Shown: positions 1,269 to 41,782 of the stretch, one piece after another | Layout: each line of letters begins with the position of its first letter | How positions within the stretch are numbered: the first letter of the stretch is position 1 | DNA from: Candidatus Saccharimonadota bacterium | GTDB lineage: Bacteria; Patescibacteriota; Saccharimonadia; Saccharimonadales; JACDBH01 | Reading direction: 5' to 3' | Length of the DNA stretch: 64,000 nucleotides | Assembly (NCBI GenBank): GCA_013694995.1 | Contig: JACDBH010000006.1 | Coordinates: forward strand, 21,435-85,434 | Position numbers and translations under genes: made by a program | The notes under the pieces: generated by a model | Told to the model about the DNA's origin: nothing | Database searches by the model: none | The model's input: only the letters and a program-made list of their open reading frames with translations

Positions 1269-1345
1269 GGCGATGTAGCTCAGTTGGTTAGAGCACAGGA
1301 CTCATAAGCCTGGGGTCACTGGTTCAAATCCAGTCATCGCTACCA
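1269..1345 (+). tRNA. tRNA-Met (anticodon CAT), elongator type, CCA encoded
   Basis: Cloverleaf GGCGATG/TAGCTCAGTTGGTTAGAGCA/CAGGA-CTCATAA-GCCTG/GGGTC/ACTGGTTCAAATCCAGT/CATCGCT-ACCA. The D arm and variable region closely resemble E. coli elongator tRNA-Met. There is an A31:G39 mismatch. Confidence 0.8.
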
Positions 1346-20880: not shown

Positions 20881-20955
20881 TGGTAGCGGGGCTAGGACTC
20901 GAACCTAGGACCTCTTGGTTATGAGCCAAGCGAGCTGCCGCTGCTCCACCCCGCG
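20881..20955 (-). tRNA. initiator tRNA-fMet (anticodon CAT), CCA encoded
   Basis: The reverse complement is CGCGGGGTGGAGCAGCGGCAGCTCGCTTGGCTCATAACCAAGAGGTCCTAGGTTCGAGTCCTAGCCCCGCTACCA. It has a C1:U72 mismatch and A11:U24. The 5' half is nearly identical to E. coli tRNA-fMet. Only two of the three G-C pairs in the anticodon stem are present. Confidence 0.85.
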
Positions 20956-30844: not shown

Positions 30845-32251
30845 ATGACTGAGAGAAATAACAGCCCTAACGTTTATGGTATTGAAACCGAATATACCTG
30901 CATGCTCACACTCCCCAATGATGTTGTTCACGAACTGGTTGGGAGCTGCCACTCGGTTGACGCGCGGATTGGGCTTTATGAAGCGCCGTCTGATAAAGGC
31001 AGCTCCGCAATACAAAGTCTAAGTATATCTCGCGCCCTAGAAAAAGTGGGAATATTCAGGAACTCAACCGGCATGCTCTCAAATGGTGGTAGGTTATACA
31101 TTGATCCAAGTGGCCCGGAGTACGCGACCCCCGAGACAACCACTGCCAAAGAAACCGTTTATCGATCGTTTGACGGTGATAAGATTTTACTGGGAATTTT
31201 TGACCGATTTCGCAACGACGGGATTCTCAAAGACTTCCAAGTTAACCGGCGGATCGTGGATCATAACCGTACTTCAAGAGGCATCCACTTGAATACTTTG
31301 ACTTCTTTAAACAACAGAGGACCCGATGACCTTGTGGCTAATTGGATTGCCACACTCAATGTCGTTAAGGGTGCAATGTTCGGATCGGGGGGATTGTTAG
31401 TTGACGATAAGGGTAAGACTGCCTACCACCATTCACCTAGGCTTTCTATAACAACCGATACGACCGCTAACTACAACAAGTATAAGCAAAGACCCCTGGT
31501 TAGAGGCCCGTTTAAAGGTGATGGTAATCAGTTTGCGCGGATAGAAACCGTAACTAGTGACGCCCTTAACTTTGGGTGGCCACTGCGCGCAAGCCTGGTT
31601 GCAACCAATGCTTTTGTCGGGATATTAGAGCTGGGATATGGTGATAAGTGCCCTCGCCTTAGGAATCCAGTTAGTTCCGCGCATTTTGTAGGCAGGCTTG
31701 GTAGTGAAGGTAAGGTAGAAATTATAAAAGGCGAAAGCACTGCCACTGCCCGCCCATTAGATATAATGCGTCAAATTTGTGAAATAGTTTTAGAAGTTGA
31801 TGATAAAGAAAAGTATTTAGATAAAGAGTCGGATCAGGTAATCGGCGAGATAATCGATACGGCAGACAAAATGAGCACCGATATTTATAGCGTTGCCGAC
31901 CAAGTAGAATCCGTGGGCAGATTGGTCGCAATGCAGAGGAAAATGGATAAAGCCAAGATCGCACTAGATTCAGAAAGAATGTGTCGGTTTGATTATGCGT
32001 GGGACTGGTTAAGGGGCGGCATAGCCGAGACTTTAAGAGATAAGAGGTTAGCTGGCTGGCAGGGCTTTGGGGACACTCCGTCTGTGGCGACTGTACGCAG
32101 GAGGCTAACTACCCCTCCTCAAGACACACGAGCTAAAGTCAGGGGCGAAAATATAAAATTGAGTCATGGTACTAATGATTCCACATGGGATCAGATCGAT
32201 TTTGGTACCCACCAGCAATACGTTCATCCGTTAGATTCCCACAGATCTTAG
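30845..32251 (+). CDS. Pup ligase/deamidase (PafA/Dop) family carboxylate-amine ligase homolog, divergent
   Basis: N-terminal VYGIETEYTCM (the GxETE[FY] signature) and NGGRLYIDPSGPEYATPE (compare NGARLY.D..HPEY[AS]TPE). The GCHENY-type motif is degenerate (RGIHLNT). 468 aa. Confidence 0.7.
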   Translation: MTERNNSPNVYGIETEYTCMLTLPNDVVHELVGSCHSVDARIGLYEAPSDKGSSAIQSLSISRALEKVGIFRNSTGMLSNGGRLYIDPSGPEYATPETTTAKETVYRSFDGDKILLGIFDRFRNDGILKDFQVNRRIVDHNRTSRGIHLNTLTSLNNRGPDDLVANWIATLNVVKGAMFGSGGLLVDDKGKTAYHHSPRLSITTDTTANYNKYKQRPLVRGPFKGDGNQFARIETVTSDALNFGWPLRASLVATNAFVGILELGYGDKCPRLRNPVSSAHFVGRLGSEGKVEIIKGESTATARPLDIMRQICEIVLEVDDKEKYLDKESDQVIGEIIDTADKMSTDIYSVADQVESVGRLVAMQRKMDKAKIALDSERMCRFDYAWDWLRGGIAETLRDKRLAGWQGFGDTPSVATVRRRLTTPPQDTRAKVRGENIKLSHGTNDSTWDQIDFGTHQQYVHPLDSHRS

Positions 32252-32320: not shown

Positions 32321-32683
32321 TTATTCGTGAGAGTCTTGCGTGACATCGGCTTCATAACCCCAATCACTTTGCCACTGTTTCATTTGGGCGATTTCTTGTT
32401 CTTGTGCGGTAATGATATTGCGTGACAATTCTTTGATTTCTTCATGCTTTGCCTGCCCTTCGGCTAATTTGGCCATTCCTACCGCGCCTTCGTGGTGGGC
32501 AATCATAGAGTTAATAAATTCTTCATCAAATTCATCGCCGCGCTTATTAGTTAAAGACTCTGTCATGGACTGCATGCTATCGCTGCTAGCAACCGGTTTT
32601 TCGATTGTGGTTGCAACAATTGAGACTAGTAGACCGCCTGCCATAAAGCTGATGATTCCGATAAGCAAAGACTTGGTATTCAT
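32321..32683 (-). CDS. DUF305 family protein (copper-stress associated), membrane-anchored
   Basis: N-terminal TM. FDEEFINSMIAHHEGAVGMAKL and ITAQEQEIAQMKQW match DUF305 repeats. Confidence 0.75.
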   Translation of the reverse strand: MNTKSLLIGIISFMAGGLLVSIVATTIEKPVASSDSMQSMTESLTNKRGDEFDEEFINSMIAHHEGAVGMAKLAEGQAKHEEIKELSRNIITAQEQEIAQMKQWQSDWGYEADVTQDSHE

Positions 32684-32704
32684 TTCTGTTTCCTCCTGAT
32701 TAAG

Positions 32705-32989
32705 TTAACGTGACAGCATCCGGCTGACGGCCGTTACTAGTTCTTCGGCTTTGGCTTCAGTTCCCTTTGGCCCGATGTTGTCGTTAGCAAGACAATGCCG
32801 GGCGTGTTCGCCGAGCAACTCCAAGGCGACTTTATCAAGGGCAGCCTGGGCAGCGTTGATTTGGGTCAGAATATCCACGCAGTATTTATCTTCCACGACC
32901 ATCCGAGTTACGCCGCGCACTTGGCCTTCTACCCGGTTTAACCGCTTCACTATCTGCTCTTTGTTCTTGGTGTAACCGTATGTGTTCAT
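32705..32989 (-). CDS. csoR: CsoR/RcnR family metal-sensing transcriptional repressor
   Basis: RLNRVEGQVRGVTRMVVEDKYCVDILTQINAAQAALDKVALELLGEHARHCL contains the Cys...His-x3-Cys Cu(I) ligand pattern. Confidence 0.85.
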   Translation of the reverse strand: MNTYGYTKNKEQIVKRLNRVEGQVRGVTRMVVEDKYCVDILTQINAAQAALDKVALELLGEHARHCLANDNIGPKGTEAKAEELVTAVSRMLSR

Positions 32990-33474
32990 GCTGTTTCCTT
33001 ATGAGTGTGGTGATGGGCTTCAGCTTCGTCAAGCTCATGCATTTCATGCATTAGTGCGTGGCCTTTGCCGCGTTTTAGCAAATATAAGTTTACTGGGTAC
33101 GAGGCAAAGTACGCTGCCGTTAACGCTAAGGCCATCCCTAGCCAAAAGATAGGGTTAACCAGCCCAGCTTCCATGGCGCCGGGTATAACTGCCATAACGG
33201 TATTATCGACCAGCTCCATAGTCGCAATTGATAAAGTATCGGCCGCAAACACTAGGCTTAGAGCTGCCCCCAAAGCTATGCCCGATTTAACCAGCGGCAA
33301 AGCCGACAGCGAATAACCAAAGATAAATGACAACCCAACTGCCAGAGCAATTGTAGGCAGTGTGCTAAGTCCTATGGCCGTGCCGATAATTAGACCCAGT
33401 ATTTCGCCGATAGCACACCCTGTCAGACAGTGGAGAGTAGCGCTTTTTGCTAAAGATTGGATGTTATTATGCAT
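32986..33474 (-). CDS. DUF4396 membrane protein, first gene of the CsoR operon
   Basis: LHCLTGCAIGEILG motif. 4 TM. His-rich C-terminus (EAEAHHHTH). Overlaps csoR by 4 nt. Confidence 0.7.
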   Translation of the reverse strand: MHNNIQSLAKSATLHCLTGCAIGEILGLIIGTAIGLSTLPTIALAVGLSFIFGYSLSALPLVKSGIALGAALSLVFAADTLSIATMELVDNTVMAVIPGAMEAGLVNPIFWLGMALALTAAYFASYPVNLYLLKRGKGHALMHEMHELDEAEAHHHTHKETA

Positions 33475-33486
33475 GTTAATTCTCCT

Positions 33487-33526
33487 TATACCCCCCTAGG
33501 GTATACAAAAACAAAAATCGTGTCAA
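33487..33526 (-). promoter_or_regulatory. promoter of the copper operon with an overlapping CsoR-type operator
   Basis: The minus strand reads TTGACA (33526-33521), 17 nt, then TACCCT (33503-33498). The inverted repeat TATACCC-N5-GGGTATA (33487-33505) covers the -10. SD GGAGAA follows. Confidence 0.6.
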
Positions 33527-33558
33527 TAAAAAAGAGTCCCTGAATCAAAGACTCTTTT
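33524..33558 (-). terminator. rho-independent terminator after the 41-aa ORF
   Basis: AAAAGAGTC - 11 nt - GACTCTTTT forms a 9-bp stem. The minus strand continues TTTTTATTG. Confidence 0.6.
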
Positions 33559-33575
33559 GTTTAGTAAACTTTTAT
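33557..33575 (+). repeat. 19-bp direct repeat, copy A (TTGTTTAGTAAACTTTTAT)
   Basis: Identical to 34646..34664. Both copies sit between a minus-strand stop codon and its terminator hairpin. The core GTTTA-G-TAAAC is palindromic. Confidence 0.7.
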
Positions 33576-33590
33576 CTTATTAGGTTGGCT

Positions 33591-33716
33591 TTATTCCTCG
33601 TTAAAAGACCTGTTTTCAGACTGTTTTATCAATTGCTCCAGGCGGGCTTGGTCTTCGCTTTTCTTTACATAAGCCGTGGTTTCAATCTTGTTATATTTTC
33701 TTTTTTTGTCAGCCAT
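33591..33716 (-). CDS. small highly charged protein (41 aa), below the ORF-track cutoff
   Basis: MADKKRKYNKIETTAYVKKSEDQARLEQLIKQSENRSFNEE. Strong SD AAGGAG lies 7 nt upstream. A terminator lies downstream. Confidence 0.5.
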   Translation of the reverse strand: MADKKRKYNKIETTAYVKKSEDQARLEQLIKQSENRSFNEE

Positions 33717-33862
33717 GGTAAAGCTCCTTTTACTTACTACTCTTTTACCATAAACTTTTAATCATTATCAAACAGTAAGGAATCTAACATATAGCAATCC
33801 CAAAACAAAATGACGCTTTTTGGCCGCGACCAAAATGAATGGTTTCTTATAATGATTACAAT

Positions 33863-33934
33863 TTAGAAAACGAACATTATAACTGCTATCAAACCTATCA
33901 CCGCAAGAATGGTAATAATTGTGCTGCGACCCAT
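33863..33934 (-). CDS. 23-aa hydrophobic mini-ORF (type I toxin-like or small membrane peptide)
   Basis: MGRSTIITILAVIGLIAVIMFVF. SD-like GAAAGG lies 8 nt upstream. A TACAAT -10-like box lies about 30 nt upstream. It sits just downstream of the terminator at 34011-34046. Confidence 0.35.
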   Translation of the reverse strand: MGRSTIITILAVIGLIAVIMFVF

Positions 33935-34010
33935 ATAGTTGGCCTTTCGTTATTAATTTCACTCCCAATTGTAGAAAAATTAAAAGCTAATAACCGTAAA
34001 ATAGCTTACA

Positions 34011-34046
34011 TTAAAAAACCTTGCGGAGGTCAGACCTCCGCAAGGT
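34011..34046 (-). terminator. strong rho-independent terminator (minus strand)
   Basis: ACCTTGCGGAGG-TCTGA-CCTCCGCAAGGT forms a 12-bp stem, followed on the minus strand by TTTTTTAA. Confidence 0.6.
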
Positions 34047-34618
34047 ACTACGGTTAGTAAGTATATGAATACTTAAATAAAATAGAACCATATGTCATCA
34101 GTTAGGTCATTTCGCGCATTCCTTCGGAATGCCGAGCGAGTATCTTTTGGACCGCCAAAAGATACCAAAAACTCTCTGGCTGCGTTTTTTCTTGATAGAG
34201 CCACCAGTCATAGCAAACAACAGGGCTTCGGAACTCGCTAGCGCTCAAACAGCCTAGCCCTATTTTGTTGTTTGTATGACGTGGCTCTTCAGGAAAAAGC
34301 CGATGCCAAGTAGCCCCCATGGATACGGCCCAACTGGCCGATATTTTATACGTGCTCGCTCCAAGGAGCGAGCTTCTGCTTTAAACCCCAGCATCTGAAA
34401 AGTCCGGTGAATATTGTGGCAAAAGGAGCGAATCAAGCAAAAGTGTGCTCGAATGCCTACTTAAAGTTAAAGTATTCGAGCCGCTTGCCGTTCTTTTGCG
34501 CGCTCTCTTTTGCTACAATTTTCAGCCGTGACTTTTCAGCCGCTGGTCAGTTTTTTGGCTTCTTTTTTGCTGAACCAAAAAAGAAGCGACTTGGTTCTTG
34601 GTCGCAAGAACAAATAAA
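34047..34618 (-). ncRNA. candidate structured non-coding RNA region, unclassified (strand tentative)
   Basis: About 570 nt between two minus-strand terminators, with no credible ORF. Stable helices: 34116-34132 (7 bp), 34140-34165 (11 bp), 34214-34274 (9+3 bp enclosing), 34354-34373 (8-9 bp), 34388-34546 (rod), 34558-34587 (12 bp). Confidence 0.3.
34388..34546. repeat. 159-nt imperfect long hairpin (rod-like inverted repeat)
   Basis: Nested complementary pairs: CCAGC/GCTGG, CTGAAAAGTC-CGG/CCG-T-GACTTTTCAG, ATTGTGGCAAAAGGAGCG/CGCTCTCTTTTGCTACAAT, GCAAAAG/CTTTTGC, CTCGAAT/ATTCGAG. Confidence 0.7.
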
Positions 34619-34646
34619 ATAGAGCCCCTGTACTGTGGGGCTCTAT
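34611..34646 (-). terminator. rho-independent terminator after 34667..34975
   Basis: ATAGAGCCCC - 8 nt - GGGGCTCTAT forms a 10-bp stem. The minus strand continues TTTATTTG. Confidence 0.6.
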
Positions 34647-34664
34647 TGTTTAGTAAACTTTTAT
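34646..34664 (+). repeat. 19-bp direct repeat, copy B (TTGTTTAGTAAACTTTTAT)
   Basis: Identical to 33557..33575, 1089 bp away, in the same position relative to a stop codon and terminator. Confidence 0.7.
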
Positions 34665-34666
34665 AT

Positions 34667-34975
34667 TTAGAAAATGCTACGTAGCAAGTTTGCGATTGGA
34701 TTGCCCCTAGCTTTGCCTTGGCTTGCAATGAAGCTTACACAATCACCTTGATTCTTGAAGGTTGGGTTATTAAATGTCTTCCAACCATCCTTTTTACACT
34801 GATCTTTGTTAGTGGGAGTAGTAAGCGATTCCTGTAGTTCAAAATCGAATGTTGTGCTATTGAACGTTACAGAGTCTAGGTAAGTAATATAGCTAGGATT
34901 GTACGTGCCCTGAAATACTCCATACTCTGTCACAACACCTTGGGGTGCTTGCACTTTTGCATCGGTAAGGTTCAC
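34667..34975 (-). CDS. C-terminal part of a secreted protein (possibly split from 34972..35520)
   Basis: GTG start overlapping the upstream stop. Contains the Cys-motif DQCKKDGWKTF...FKNQGDCVSF. Its frame stays open upstream of the GTG to about codon -14. Confidence 0.5.
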   Translation of the reverse strand: MNLTDAKVQAPQGVVTEYGVFQGTYNPSYITYLDSVTFNSTTFDFELQESLTTPTNKDQCKKDGWKTFNNPTFKNQGDCVSFIASQGKARGNPIANLLRSIF

Positions 34976-35520
34976 TGTAGGAGGGCCAGCGATGTTACAT
35001 GTAACGCGCCGAATGGACTAGTACACCAAAGCATACCTGTAGCAACGTCACCGGTTTGCCAAATATTACGCTCCACAGGCGCATTGTTGGGCGATCCATC
35101 GCTCCAATATGGCTCATAAACTAAATATGTACTATCGGATGTAGTTAGATTGCCATCTATATCAATCTTAAGGTAAAAGCTTAATGCCCCAGCGTCCACA
35201 TTTGCTGTTTCTACTTTTGATACATACGACACATTATTTAAAGCCCCTAAAGCAAGTGGGGTAGACAATGCATAGGATAGTGCAGCGTTTGATTCGTTTG
35301 TTTCGTTTGTTGTTAGTCTAGCAGAACCCACTCCCATAGGCGCAGTGGCGTCAGCGACAAAATTTACTACGCCCCCTGCACCGACATCAATTACCCAACC
35401 ATTTGGATTTGTTGGCGTGACAACTGTAGTTGCAGCACTTGCCATTGGCGCGAAGGCCAAAATTGGTAGAGCGAGCAAAGCCGATAAACCAGCTGCCAGC
35501 CTTTTTATTGTTTTTATCAT
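34972..35520 (-). CDS. secreted protein, N-terminal part (signal peptide)
   Basis: Signal peptide MIKTIKRLAAGLSALLALPILAFAPMASA. SD AGGAGA. Ends within the palindromic TTACATGTAA region next to the start of the following ORF. Confidence 0.6.
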   Translation of the reverse strand: MIKTIKRLAAGLSALLALPILAFAPMASAATTVVTPTNPNGWVIDVGAGGVVNFVADATAPMGVGSARLTTNETNESNAALSYALSTPLALGALNNVSYVSKVETANVDAGALSFYLKIDIDGNLTTSDSTYLVYEPYWSDGSPNNAPVERNIWQTGDVATGMLWCTSPFGALHVTSLALLQ

Positions 35521-39705: not shown

Positions 39706-40182
39706 ATGGGAATTAGAGCAACCAGCGGCCACGAATTTGGTGAACCCACCCCGCATGTAATGCGCGCGGCGGCATTTGCGCAGATAAACCAGTTTGTCCT
39801 AAATTCGGGACGCAAAGAGCAAGTTACTGAGATAATCCCGCTCGAAACCGAGCCAGAAATTGATATTGACCGACCCCCTATTAATACCGCATCGTCAACG
39901 GCACTACCGCCACTCAATTGGGACTCTGAAGCAATACAAAAACTGCGTAACTGTATTGATAAGCCACGTGGGCTATTTTTCCCCGAACCTGGCCCTAACC
40001 TCAAGGATCGTCAAAAGCTGGCTAAAGCCATCTGCGCGGAGTGTATCATTAACGACCTTTGCCTTGATGAAGCCCTGAAGAACAGTCAAAATGTTGGCAT
40101 TTGGGGCGGTACAACAAAAGGCGAACGCAAAAAGATTATCAATGCTCGCAGCCAAGCCGCCCAGGAAACTGAGGTGGCATGA
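39706..40182 (+). CDS. WhiB-like (Wbl) Fe-S transcription factor paralog 1, long N-terminal extension
   Basis: Four Cys: RNC...AKAICAECIINDLCLDEAL...VGIWGGTTKGERKKI (C-x2-C-x5-C, GIWGG turn, basic tail). SD GGAG upstream. Confidence 0.8.
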   Translation: MGIRATSGHEFGEPTPHVMRAAAFAQINQFVLNSGRKEQVTEIIPLETEPEIDIDRPPINTASSTALPPLNWDSEAIQKLRNCIDKPRGLFFPEPGPNLKDRQKLAKAICAECIINDLCLDEALKNSQNVGIWGGTTKGERKKIINARSQAAQETEVA

Positions 40183-40198
40183 ATATTAGGTATATCAA

Positions 40199-40711
40199 AT
40201 GAGCATTGAGACAGTGAACGATTGGCAGAGCAAGGAACCGACTGCTGAGGAGCTTCAACAAGTCGAATTACAAGCAATACTCGAAGCCAGGATAAAACAA
40301 ATGGATCCCGGAGACTTGAGGTATTGGCACAGCGCAATTTTGGATAGAGATTTCGAGGCAGACATTGAATTTGAAACTGAGGATCGTGTTAAGGAAGCCG
40401 CTGTATATTCAGATAATCCAATACCTACTGGAAAAACCACTGACTCCTACTGGAGGAGTAAGGGTTCTTGCCTAGGAGCAAACCTAAAATTATTTTATCC
40501 CGATAAAACCGGCAGATACGCTAGAGCAAATAACTACAACATAGTGTTACAAGCAAAAGCAATCTGCGAGACATGCGTGGTTCGTGTTGAATGCCTGGAA
40601 AATGCGCTAGAAAACAACGAGCAGTACGGCATATGGGGCGGGAAGACTGAAGATGAGCGTGACGAGCTTCTTAGGCGACAAGGTCATTCTGAACGAAACG
40701 TAAGTGCATAA
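40199..40711 (+). CDS. WhiB-like (Wbl) paralog 2
   Basis: GSCLG...AKAICETCVVRVECLENALENNEQYGIWGGKTEDERDELLRRQ. The ~100-aa acidic N-terminal extension is unrelated to that of paralog 1. Confidence 0.8.
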   Translation: MSIETVNDWQSKEPTAEELQQVELQAILEARIKQMDPGDLRYWHSAILDRDFEADIEFETEDRVKEAAVYSDNPIPTGKTTDSYWRSKGSCLGANLKLFYPDKTGRYARANNYNIVLQAKAICETCVVRVECLENALENNEQYGIWGGKTEDERDELLRRQGHSERNVSA

Positions 40712-40730
40712 ATAGGTATAATATGGCTTA

Positions 40731-41120
40731 ATGAGCCCAAACCGGATCCCAAGAGGTGATTATTACCTAGAAACCAACCCAAATGGCGAAATAAAGCCCG
40801 ATAGTTCTCAGGTGTCGATAGGCAACAGCGACAGGCGTTTAGGAGAATTTGCTTTAGGGTTAGGGCTTTGGGCTTTCGAGGAGTGGCGGGCTTATGCGGC
40901 CTGCGCGGGGCTGAATCCTGATATATTTTTCCCTACGACAGATTATGACATAGAAGTAGCAAAAGCAATTTGTGCCGACTGTGGCGTTAGTCAAGAGTGC
41001 CTCAACTATTCCCAAGAACGCCCAGAGGTATACGGCATATGGGGGGGTAAAAATAAAGCTGAACGTCGGGCCTTACGGCACAGAGAGTCCGGCCATCCAC
41101 CTGAGAAATTGGTTGTATAA
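40731..41120 (+). CDS. WhiB-like (Wbl) paralog 3
   Basis: AACAGLNPDIFFP...AKAICADCGVSQECLNYSQERPEVYGIWGGKNKAERRAL. TATAAT (40717-40722) lies 8 nt before the ATG. Confidence 0.8.
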   Translation: MSPNRIPRGDYYLETNPNGEIKPDSSQVSIGNSDRRLGEFALGLGLWAFEEWRAYAACAGLNPDIFFPTTDYDIEVAKAICADCGVSQECLNYSQERPEVYGIWGGKNKAERRALRHRESGHPPEKLVV

Positions 41121-41129
41121 TATATCCTA

Positions 41130-41453
41130 ATGAGGAAAGAAACCCCATCTTCAATCGAAGCAGATCCGCCGCTTCATCCAGCCCAGGCAGCAGAACTTGC
41201 AAATGCCAGAGAGGCCTTTGAACTAAATAAAACTGATGAGTTGTGGAAGGAATTTGGATACTGCGCAGGCAAGCAAAAAGAGTTTATGAAAAACAGTATA
41301 GCCGCAACAGCTATGTGCGATGTCTGTTTGGTCAAAGTTGAATGTCTGGAATTCGCAATTGAGAATAATCAGAATTTTTATATTTGGGGCGGCAAAACAC
41401 CTTCAGAACGCAAACGCCTGATCAAACGGCGTAACCAGGCCCCCAAGAAGTAA
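41130..41453 (+). CDS. WhiB-like (Wbl) paralog 4
   Basis: GYCAG...ATAMCDVCLVKVECLEFAIENNQNFYIWGGKTPSERKRLIKRR. TATAAT (41116-41121) lies 8 nt before the ATG. Confidence 0.8.
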   Translation: MRKETPSSIEADPPLHPAQAAELANAREAFELNKTDELWKEFGYCAGKQKEFMKNSIAATAMCDVCLVKVECLEFAIENNQNFYIWGGKTPSERKRLIKRRNQAPKK

Positions 41454-41589
41454 ACTTCTGTCCATACCAGACCTAATCTGCTATAATTTCCCTGTTAAAA
41501 ACAGCTTTTAGCCAAAATACCAAACCAGTTCGCTTGTCGAATGTTTTTGGATTTTGAGAGGAGATGGCTTGTAGGGTCTGTAGTTTTAA

Positions 41590-41706
41590 CAATCGGCTAA
41601 ACCAAGAACTTGTTCTGTTTAGACGATTGAAAGGAGCAACCGACCAAAAAGTGAAGTTTTGGAACAAACTTGTTACAAAACAAGCTAAAAGGTCGGGTTG
41701 CGACGA
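41590..41706 (+). repeat. 117-nt conserved tRNA-upstream leader element, copy B
   Basis: About 95% identical to 1152..1268 and ends exactly at the tRNA 5' end. The track ORF 41473..41667 (minus) lies within it and is rejected. Confidence 0.85.
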
Positions 41707-41782
41707 GGGGGCGTAGCTCAGTGGTTAGAGCAGAGGACTCATAATCCTTTGGCCGTTGGTTCAAGTCCAACCGCCCCCACCA
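41707..41782 (+). tRNA. tRNA with CAT anticodon, probably tRNA-Ile2 (lysidine-modified), CCA encoded
   Basis: GGGGGCG/TAGCTCAGTGGTTAGAGCA/GAGGA-CTCATAA-TCCTT/TGGCC/GTTGGTTCAAGTCCAAC/CGCCCCC-ACCA. The D arm, anticodon loop, variable loop and T arm closely resemble E. coli ileX. The Ile2-versus-Met assignment is inferred only. Confidence 0.8.

Follow-up and report, generated by a model that had tools for sequence, protein, structure and literature searches.

We analyzed a hairpin-dense intergenic segment of 1.1 kb in a 64-kb stretch of DNA (hereafter, the window) taken from a metagenome-assembled genome (MAG) of Candidatus Saccharibacteria, assembly GCA_020063845.1, contig JAITZI010000001.1. 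The hairpin block of this segment, at positions 34108-34614, was shown to consist of two inverted, tail-to-tail copies of one type of ~200-nt non-coding unit. The first of these, unit 1, was shown to be a bona fide member of a widespread hairpin family that is absent from Rfam, in which a 20-base tip sequence recurs without change on the long hairpins of over 100 widely differing bacterial contigs of environmental origin. The rest of the segment is ordinary: it holds a gene for a 23-amino-acid (aa) membrane peptide with its own promoter, an orphan 41-aa open reading frame (ORF), and terminators. What had been a large structured RNA candidate was thereby resolved into two repeat units and an unannotated 23-aa membrane-peptide gene. 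We tentatively favor the reading that the element formed around the long hairpin of unit 1 (rod 1) is a non-autonomous repeat, similar to REPINs (doublets of repetitive extragenic palindromes, REPs) or miniature inverted-repeat transposable elements (MITEs), which would be copied as single-stranded DNA and recognized at its loop by an enzyme encoded elsewhere.

The apical loop of the family has the consensus (A)AACTCGCT(N)GCGCTCAAACA(G), is 19-21 nt long, and is nearly invariant; the rod sequence varies freely yet stays paired. A scan of a metagenome collection with the loop pattern AACTCGCTNGCGNTCAAACA yielded at least 120 stretches, and 128 matches when loci from earlier searches are counted. 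Among the matches listed, ~110 of the 128 were hairpin tips with 15-78 enclosing pairs within ±90 nt, the GC content of the loci ranged from 26% to 68%, and the loop position N was G in 41 members, A in 35, and T in 33. A 19-nt variant also exists. Because N is free and this variant would shift the frame, the loop cannot be coding. A few matches without a hairpin were visibly coding, for example in a xylose-isomerase gene or at a phage gene start, and were set aside. Five matches in viral contigs were likewise discarded, since they marked a phage gene start (MKLASAQT...) without an enclosing stem, roughly at chance level.

Structural covariation among homologues had been proposed as a check on the segment, and it was found in 47 dereplicated members. 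In their ungapped alignment, 71% of the apical 9-bp stem was paired, compared to 41.5% in column shuffles, none of 500 of which reached the observed value. The covariation score was 0.70 for the apical stem against 0.21 for the shuffles, every slid register gave 0.37 or less, and all four Watson-Crick pair types occurred at nearly every stem position. A covariance model (R1) built without the window then gave exactly one significant match in it, at 34210-34277 (41.9 bits, E = 2.4e-10). An exact copy of the loop AACTCGCT(N)GCGCTCAAACA lies at 34232-34251, enclosed by 50 pairs within ±90 nt, with a TAT bulge 3′ of the apical stem. The 5′ module is present as well: a small hairpin (hairpin A, 34140-34165) and the linker CAAAAAC stand 66 nt ahead of the loop, compared to ~60-95 nt in the family, and the whole block lies downstream of a minus-strand 102-aa gene. 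Hairpin A and its purine linker were found upstream of the loop, in forward orientation, in 12 of 49 dereplicated members and in only 1-3 at control positions or orientations; other subfamilies have different 5′ modules.

A homologue of rod 1 was identified in L018, a contig of another MAG that carries a DUF4396 gene. Positions 34166-34338 of the window matched positions 4-181 of L018 on the same strand, weakly (nhmmer E = 1.4e-4). The two stems differ by double compensatory changes (GAGCCAC/GTGGCTC versus GAGCAGC/GCTGCTC), the apical loops are almost identical, and CCCATGGATRCGGCC is conserved past the rod. L018 begins with AAC-CAAGAAAC, which corresponds to the end of hairpin A plus the linker, the remainder being lost at the contig end.

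All helices that had been described from the sequence were recovered in per-hairpin folds, namely the perfect 11-12-bp stems, the two long rods, and the ~570-nt run of helices. The fold of 34050-34650 was far more stable than those of shuffles (minus strand, z = −10; plus strand, z = −17.8), and this region was the longest run of outlier windows when the whole window was folded in sliding 160-nt steps. The statement of the original prediction that the hairpins share no sequence and form no REP family was the claim most clearly contradicted, since they share a common architecture and one unit belongs to a widespread repeat family. Both units are built from the same four parts: a small GC hairpin; hairpin A, in which a pyrimidine-rich strand pairs with a purine-rich one; a linker, CAAAAA(A)C, in which the sequence of that purine strand recurs; and a long imperfect rod. 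In unit 2, the linker and the small hairpins (34547-34614, plus strand) were read from the folds together with the sequence. The parts of the block are as follows.

34112-34133, minus strand: small GC hairpin of unit 1 (h0), with a C-GAA-G triloop on the minus strand.
34140-34165, minus strand: hairpin A of unit 1, GTATCTTTTGG-ACCG-CCAAAAGATAC, pyrimidine strand against purine strand, followed by the CAAAAAC linker to 34172.
34177-34308, minus strand: rod 1 of unit 1, an imperfect hairpin of ~50 bp with the loop AACTCGCTAGCGCTCAAACA at 34232-34251 (plus-strand reading).
34326-34373, plus strand: spacer between the units; its two small hairpins, at 34326-34340 and 34354-34373, resemble plus-strand terminators.
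34388-34546, plus strand (inverted): rod 2 of unit 2, a 159-nt hairpin with an apical loop different from that of rod 1.
34557-34550: linker of unit 2, CAAAAAAC, which reads GTTTTTTG on the plus strand.
34558-34587, plus strand: hairpin A2 of unit 2, GCTTCTTTTTTG...CAAAAAAGAAGC, mirroring hairpin A of unit 1.
34591-34614, plus strand: small hairpin h0′ of unit 2, mirroring h0 of unit 1.

The library searches gave no known family for these structures. At the gathering threshold, a scan with Rfam 15 (4227 models) found only three tRNAs in the window; the best scores within 33400-34800 were 10-24 bits against thresholds of 34-88, and no match appeared even with E up to 10. Accordingly, none of the classes proposed beforehand (6S, ROOL, GOLLD, raiA, OLE) matched, nor did any other family. 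The earlier failure to recognize RNase P, transfer-messenger RNA (tmRNA), or signal recognition particle RNA agreed with the Rfam scans, and ARAGORN detected no tmRNA. Similarly, Rfam scans of 30 member loci, 10 of them also at a permissive threshold, returned no family, and literature searches by sequence and by concept produced nothing relevant. The hairpin family is apparently undescribed.

The distribution of the copies was characterized across the loci. When an inexact loop was allowed, extra copies appeared in the same loci, with 0-2 loop bases different or with N absent, and many loci held 2-3 copies within 0.2-3 kb, in tandem or inverted. Copies within one contig (L100, L202, L145) align end to end over ~215 nt and then diverge abruptly. 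The flanking genes in 51 cases were arranged ++ in 18, +− in 16, −− in 15, and −+ in 2, so that only 2 of 51 were divergent. The orientation of the element showed no preference relative to neighboring genes. No protein cluster was shared by more than 8 of 110 loci, and the neighbors were ordinary housekeeping genes. A named carrier was found in PLSDB: in the chromid of Ralstonia sp. RRA.1, two copies lie in inverted order at about 797.2-797.6 kb of NZ_CP146092.1, and a hairpin A borders the pair on either side. This chromid was the only true match to two loop variants in that database, the others being partial and mostly inside coding genes.

Hairpin-dense intergenic arrays were also observed elsewhere (L136 250-950, L097 4350-4850, L145 4050-6100, L214 2880-3400). 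In these carriers, tandem or inverted copies with the conserved loop stand beside unrelated long perfect hairpins, and once beside a tRNA gene (L136). A high-GC subfamily (L089, L100, L102, L160, L164, L171, and similar loci) has additional conserved sequence outside the rod, with GCTTCTCGAAG on the 5′ side and CTGCGATGCTCGGCGCG...ACAAAGGGGA...AAAACC on the 3′ side, which suggests that its conserved core may be more elaborate.

Strand asymmetry was analyzed in 57 dereplicated members. In the AACTCG orientation, isolated stem mismatches included 26 A·C and 12 G·T, and A·C mismatches become wobble pairs on the strand opposite AACTCG. Unpaired extra bases numbered 307 in the 3′ arm versus 92 in the 5′ arm. 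Within the elements, C-GNA-G triloop hairpins occurred nine times on the opposite strand and once on the AACTCG strand, compared to 26 and 24 elsewhere in the loci. The loop center on the opposite strand reads GC-GCNA-GC, or GC-GCA-GC in the 19-nt variant, and every rod is followed there by a U/T-rich tract. C-GNA-G triloops are exceptionally stable in DNA, as known from work on the d(GCGNAGC) mini-hairpin. The central GCNA is not an RNA GNRA loop because its third base is mostly C or U. The folding strand is likely the one opposite the AACTCG reading, which would be the minus strand of the window for unit 1. Given the triloop, mismatch, and bulge asymmetries, we lean towards a role as single-stranded DNA on the strand TGTTTGAGCGC(N)AGCGAGTT. 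A plus-strand RNA suggested by two cUUCGg tetraloops was dropped, as their register showed UUC triloops, which are C-GAA-G on the other strand.

The pattern is REP/REPIN- and MITE-like because the element is multi-copy, non-coding, hairpin-forming, strand-asymmetric, located downstream of genes in either orientation, and lacks a gene of its own. In the mechanism that we tentatively propose, the unit would work single-stranded on the TGTTTGAGCGC(N)AGCGAGTT strand, minus for unit 1 and plus for unit 2. The long stem would display the loop, in which direct AGCG repeats flank a central GC-G(N)NA-GC mini-hairpin, to an enzyme whose gene lies elsewhere in the genome. Copies would persist solely at gene 3′ ends, since a hairpin is harmless there, and a transcribed element may incidentally block read-through or exonucleases.

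Several results weigh against a mobile-type repeat. No transposase, integrase, or other mobile-element enzyme was seen within the 64 kb: transposase and integrase families had no match among the window ORFs that were scanned or carried precomputed annotation, several of which are without any Pfam match. Terminal inverted repeats and target-site duplications, which together define MITEs, were absent at the ends of the within-contig copies (L100, L187, L123). No empty site was found, the nearest relative of the flanking protein being 67% identical and not syntenic. Copies are few: the 64-kb window contains a single canonical one, and 7.3 Gb of plasmid sequence yielded the element only rarely. 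Rod 2 lacks the conserved loop, and neither it nor the small hairpins had detectable relatives among all loci examined. As to the strand, the individual tests were each only modestly significant (p ~0.02-0.03), rod 1 of the window has more G·U pairs when read from the plus strand (five versus one), and unit 1 is followed by two hairpins that resemble plus-strand terminators. Furthermore, same-locus copies in related contigs (L091/L179 versus L107; the window versus L018) differ by compensatory changes, a pattern more in keeping with selection for a host function, for example as an RNA, than with the decay of a selfish insert. The sequence evidence would fit an element acting as RNA or as single-stranded DNA.

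In the main rival reading, possible but rather doubtful, a stable structured small RNA would be transcribed independently from unit 1, perhaps together with unit 2, and would bind a conserved protein or pair with another RNA through its conserved loop. Loop-loop pairing through the self-complementary NGCGCU core could occur, the copies would be paralogous small-RNA genes, and a discrete transcript of ~200 nt would be expected on the strand reading UGUUUGAGCGC. The strong covariation around an invariant single-stranded loop and the compensatory changes between same-locus copies suit such an RNA well, and a G·U excess on one strand is likewise expected of RNA. In the favored orientation, unit 1 is followed directly by a strong minus-strand terminator, and the order of U-rich linker, U-rich strand, and A-rich strand could form a triple helix at the 3′ end. 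However, no sigma-70-like promoter was detected on either strand in 33400-34800, and no Rfam family matched. C-GNA-G triloops typify stable DNA hairpins rather than stable RNA ones, the GCNA center provides no GNRA tetraloop, and an orientation that is independent of the neighbors while divergent regions are avoided is typical of repeats and not of small-RNA genes. The original prediction had offered one or more structured RNAs transcribed from the minus strand. The structured element stood, in that rod 1 is conserved and covarying, with the minus strand favored for unit 1; a single RNA of ~570 nt did not, as the block comprises two inverted ~200-nt units and small hairpins.

A further possibility concerns the loop itself. 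Bacterial intergenic hairpin repeats such as REP, MITEs, and attC are normally lineage-specific or conserved at the stem base. This family is unusual in that its stems covary freely but its tip hardly changes between contigs that range from 26% to 68% GC and come from at least two distant phyla. An invariant tip on free stems would therefore call for a conserved partner that reads the single-stranded loop. We consider it a doubtful, more ambitious proposal that the loop, carried on a freely evolving hairpin, is a docking site for a conserved cellular or mobile-element machine and that the family represents a new phylum-spanning class of single-stranded DNA or RNA elements. Candidate partners are a single-strand DNA nuclease or recombinase, a primase or polymerase, or an RNA-binding protein. 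The family gives a handle on this question, namely what binds or cuts TGTTTGAGCGC(N)AGCGAGTT, and Ralstonia sp. RRA.1 is a cultivable carrier.

The direct repeat that had drawn attention to the segment was examined together with the terminators and small ORFs. The 19-mer TTGTTTAGTAAACTTTTAT is present exactly twice, at 33557-33575 and 34646-34664, and no further copy occurs in the window with up to three mismatches. As had been stated, the match is improbable by chance (expectation 0.04; 0 of 100 shuffles gave two or more), and at both sites it lies between a minus-strand stop codon and a hairpin with a T-run: copy B starts 2 nt past the stop of the 102-aa ORF, and copy A 15 nt past that of the 41-aa ORF. 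However, the repeat really spans ~55 nt (33525-33578 versus 34613-34667), is 80% identical, and includes the terminator hairpins, which differ between the copies by compensatory changes (AAAAGAGTC/GACTCTTTT versus ATAGAGCC/GGCTCTAT). The paired stem changes and the ~55-nt similarity therefore identify two paralogous modules of stop codon, short 3′ untranslated region (UTR), and intrinsic terminator. The 19-mer is, judging from this alignment, the best-kept core of a duplicated terminator module, and a clean 19-nt run within 55 nt at 80% identity is not very surprising. The 19-mer belongs to these modules, and the hairpin elements do not adjoin it. The terminators and ORFs are as follows.

33525-33578, minus strand: terminator module A, with a 3′ UTR, 19-mer copy A (33557-33575), and hairpin 33530-33558 plus T-run; it ends the 41-aa ORF unit.
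33591-33716, minus strand: charged 41-aa ORF with an AAGGAG ribosome-binding site; an orphan.
33863-33934, minus strand: gene for the hydrophobic 23-aa protein MGRSTIITILAVIGLIAVIMFVF; conserved, with a homologue in L018.
33940-34013, minus strand: upstream region of the 23-aa gene, with the Shine-Dalgarno sequence GAAAGG, a −10 motif TACAAT (33968-33973), and the 20-nt block TAATGTAAGCTATTTTACGG (33994-34013).
34018-34046, minus strand: strong intrinsic terminator, a 13-bp stem followed by TTTTTT, which parts the hairpin block from the 23-aa gene.
34613-34667, minus strand: terminator module B, with hairpin 34618-34647 and 19-mer copy B (34646-34664); it ends the 102-aa ORF.

The very strong minus-strand terminator reported earlier is indeed present (34046-34018; 13 bp, 8 of them GC, then TTTTTTAATGT). 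A GC-rich stem-loop with a U-run was found there and at 34647-34618 and 33558-33530, all on the minus strand. Both small ORFs noted before also exist. The 41-aa ORF retrieved only itself among 5.8 billion protein clusters, and its coding status is doubtful because it is an orphan. In contrast, L018 encodes MGRSTIITILAIIGLIAVVMFVF at 1306-1377, and the 12 codons that differ from the 23-aa gene of the window comprise 10 synonymous changes and two V/I exchanges. The 20-nt block TAATGTAAGCTATTTTACGG is identical in L018, and the TACAAT −10 motif and GAAAGG are also conserved there. The 23-aa ORF is, by this substitution pattern, a real conserved gene under purifying selection, which the source annotation had not called; the product may be a small membrane protein or act as a type I toxin.

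Left of the segment lies a minus-strand copper-type operon encoding DUF4396, a CsoR-family repressor, and DUF305 (32321-33474). Its GC content is ~0.50 versus 0.34-0.40 in the flanks, and in a synteny search through DUF4396 (80 loci), its closest relatives were those of Nocardioides and other Actinomycetota (66-76% amino-acid identity). The operon looks horizontally acquired on these grounds, and the DUF4396 loci, mostly from Nocardioides, were for this reason of little use for the intergenic region; the exception was L018, which yielded the key homologue of rod 1. The transfer was apparently from the phylum on which Saccharibacteria typically live. Within the DUF4396 operon region (32321-33510), the start codon is separated from the promoter region by a palindrome of the CsoR operator type, TATACCCCCCTAGGGTATA, at ~33487-33505. 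Terminator module A stands just upstream of this CsoR-operated promoter.

An insertion had been the second original suggestion. We regard it as unlikely, if compatible with the other readings, that all 1,089 bp of the interval arose as a non-autonomous insertion or cassette-like duplication, in which the 19-mer would be an att core or target duplication and both small ORFs and the hairpin units would have been brought in together. The exact 19-mer direct repeat is improbable by chance, and removal of one copy plus the interval leaves a tidy junction of gene, UTR, terminator, and next operon. The neighborhood is also mosaic, with the seemingly acquired copper operon and a synteny that is unconserved in relatives, and a distance of ~1.1 kb likewise separates the 23-aa gene of L018 from the rod-1 homologue there, though in a different relative orientation. 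Nevertheless, the repeat proved to be a 55-nt, 80%-identical terminator module with compensatory stem changes, no recombinase lies nearby, and the interval holds separate transcription units with their own terminators and not one coherent element. In L018, moreover, the 23-aa gene is a solitary gene flanked by ordinary terminators, and the 19-mer is absent there.

More unlikely still is that the hairpins are cis-acting RNA of the host, serving as terminators, insulators, or 3′-end protectors that would stop read-through from the 182-aa and 102-aa ORFs into the peptide gene. Family members do lie at gene 3′ ends, a U-rich tract follows each rod on the favored strand, terminator-like sites number seven in 1.4 kb versus 1.2 expected, and a strong terminator immediately precedes the promoter of the peptide gene. 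However, the orientation to the upstream gene is random (++ 18 versus −− 15), so half of the elements would face the wrong way; a terminator needs no invariant 20-nt loop conserved from Saccharibacteria to Ralstonia; and the 102-aa gene already has a good terminator. A decayed pseudogene or chance structure, which the ORF-poor region with its overlapping short ORFs might have suggested, is effectively refuted by the fold z-scores, the membership in a covarying family, the non-coding loop, and the lack of a protein gene at the equivalent place in any locus compared, a condition that had been named beforehand.

Other features of the window were recorded as side observations. Right of the segment, two overlapping minus-strand ORFs of 182 and 102 aa (34667-35520) share a 4-nt overlap, and the N-terminus of the 182-aa ORF is signal-peptide-like. 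Neither matched a Pfam or NCBIfam family; they may be a translationally coupled pair or one frameshifted secreted protein. On the other side, a PafA/Pup-ligase-family protein is encoded at 30845-32251 (plus strand). For this protein, no relative closer than 67% identity was found among 5.8 billion protein clusters, which indicates that the lineage of the window is poorly sampled, and the gene neighborhoods of PafA relatives differ, so that synteny is not conserved. A 147-nt direct repeat, 93% identical, occurs at 1138-1284 and 41576-41722, 40.4 kb apart. Each copy enters the first ~16 nt of a tRNA-Met (CAT) gene, three of which lie in the window (1269-1345; 20881-20955, minus strand; 41707-41782). 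This repeat may have arisen by duplication of a tRNA promoter or leader, or its copies may mark the two ends of an island. Four tandem WhiB-family genes (39706-41500, plus strand) lie directly upstream of its second copy.

The repeat-like reading that we tentatively favor was compared with known systems, among which the REP/REPIN elements and their REP-associated tyrosine transposases (RAYTs; Y1 HUH enzymes of E. coli and Pseudomonas) are similar in several respects. They are likewise non-coding, multi-copy hairpins that form long hairpins as inverted doublets, they lie at gene 3′ ends between convergent or co-directional neighbors in either orientation and without target duplication, and they are recognized as single-stranded DNA by an enzyme encoded elsewhere, as we propose here. 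However, REP units are 20-40 nt long and species-specific, with a GTAG signature at the foot of the stem, whereas the rods here are 130-200 nt with free stems, the conserved part is the apical loop, which is shared across phyla, and the copy number is low. Moreover, no RAYT or Y1 transposase was found among the annotated ORFs of the 64-kb window, which has one copy. MITEs of the Correia, ERIC/IRU, RUP, and BOX types are similarly intergenic elements of 100-200 nt that form long imperfect hairpins, are co-transcribed with their neighbors, and can affect termination and mRNA stability. They differ in having conserved terminal inverted repeats and target-site duplications and in being genus-restricted, whereas the tip and not the ends is conserved here.

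Single-strand origins of the ssoA type resemble the family in being imperfect hairpins of ~150-200 nt that act as single-stranded DNA in one orientation. Their loop motif CS-6 is TAGCGT, and the N = A variant of the family loop reads CTAGCGC. However, ssoA origins lie on plasmids or integrative and conjugative elements, next to Rep or relaxase genes and with an RSB site, whereas the family elements are chromosomal, stand next to housekeeping genes, are rare in PLSDB and absent from its small plasmids, and vary at the "A" of TAGCG, so that TAGCGC occurs only in the N = A variant. Integron attC sites are also imperfect hairpins of variable sequence and conserved structure that act as folded single-stranded DNA. 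Their strand is set by asymmetric extra-helical bases, and clusters without an integrase (CALINs) occur. In attC, conserved R and L boxes (RYYYAAC/GTTRRRY) lie at the stem base and the tip is variable, which is the reverse of this family. No such boxes were seen by eye at the base of rod 1 or rod 2, where no systematic scan was made, and the window has no cassette array or integrase. Matches to other known signals were set aside: a sigma-E-like reading of the loop (GGAACT...TCAAA) because its spacing is far too short, and partial word matches to LexA, parS, dif, DnaA boxes, retron msr (UAGCGAG), and the Tn3 inverted repeat because their defining context is lacking.

Among RNAs, 6S, ROOL, GOLLD, OLE, raiA, and HEARO are similar in size range and in their rod-like or ornate predicted folds, and 6S in particular is a long hairpin of conserved shape and variable sequence. 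In contrast to 6S and the large non-coding RNAs, the block has no central bubble and consists of two inverted units rather than one RNA. If the loop is a docking site, the class would span from Saccharibacteria of the Candidate Phyla Radiation (CPR) to Betaproteobacteria and would be comparable in kind to REP/RAYT, attC/IntI, and 6S/RNA polymerase, although, unlike in those three systems, the recognition determinant would reside in the loop.

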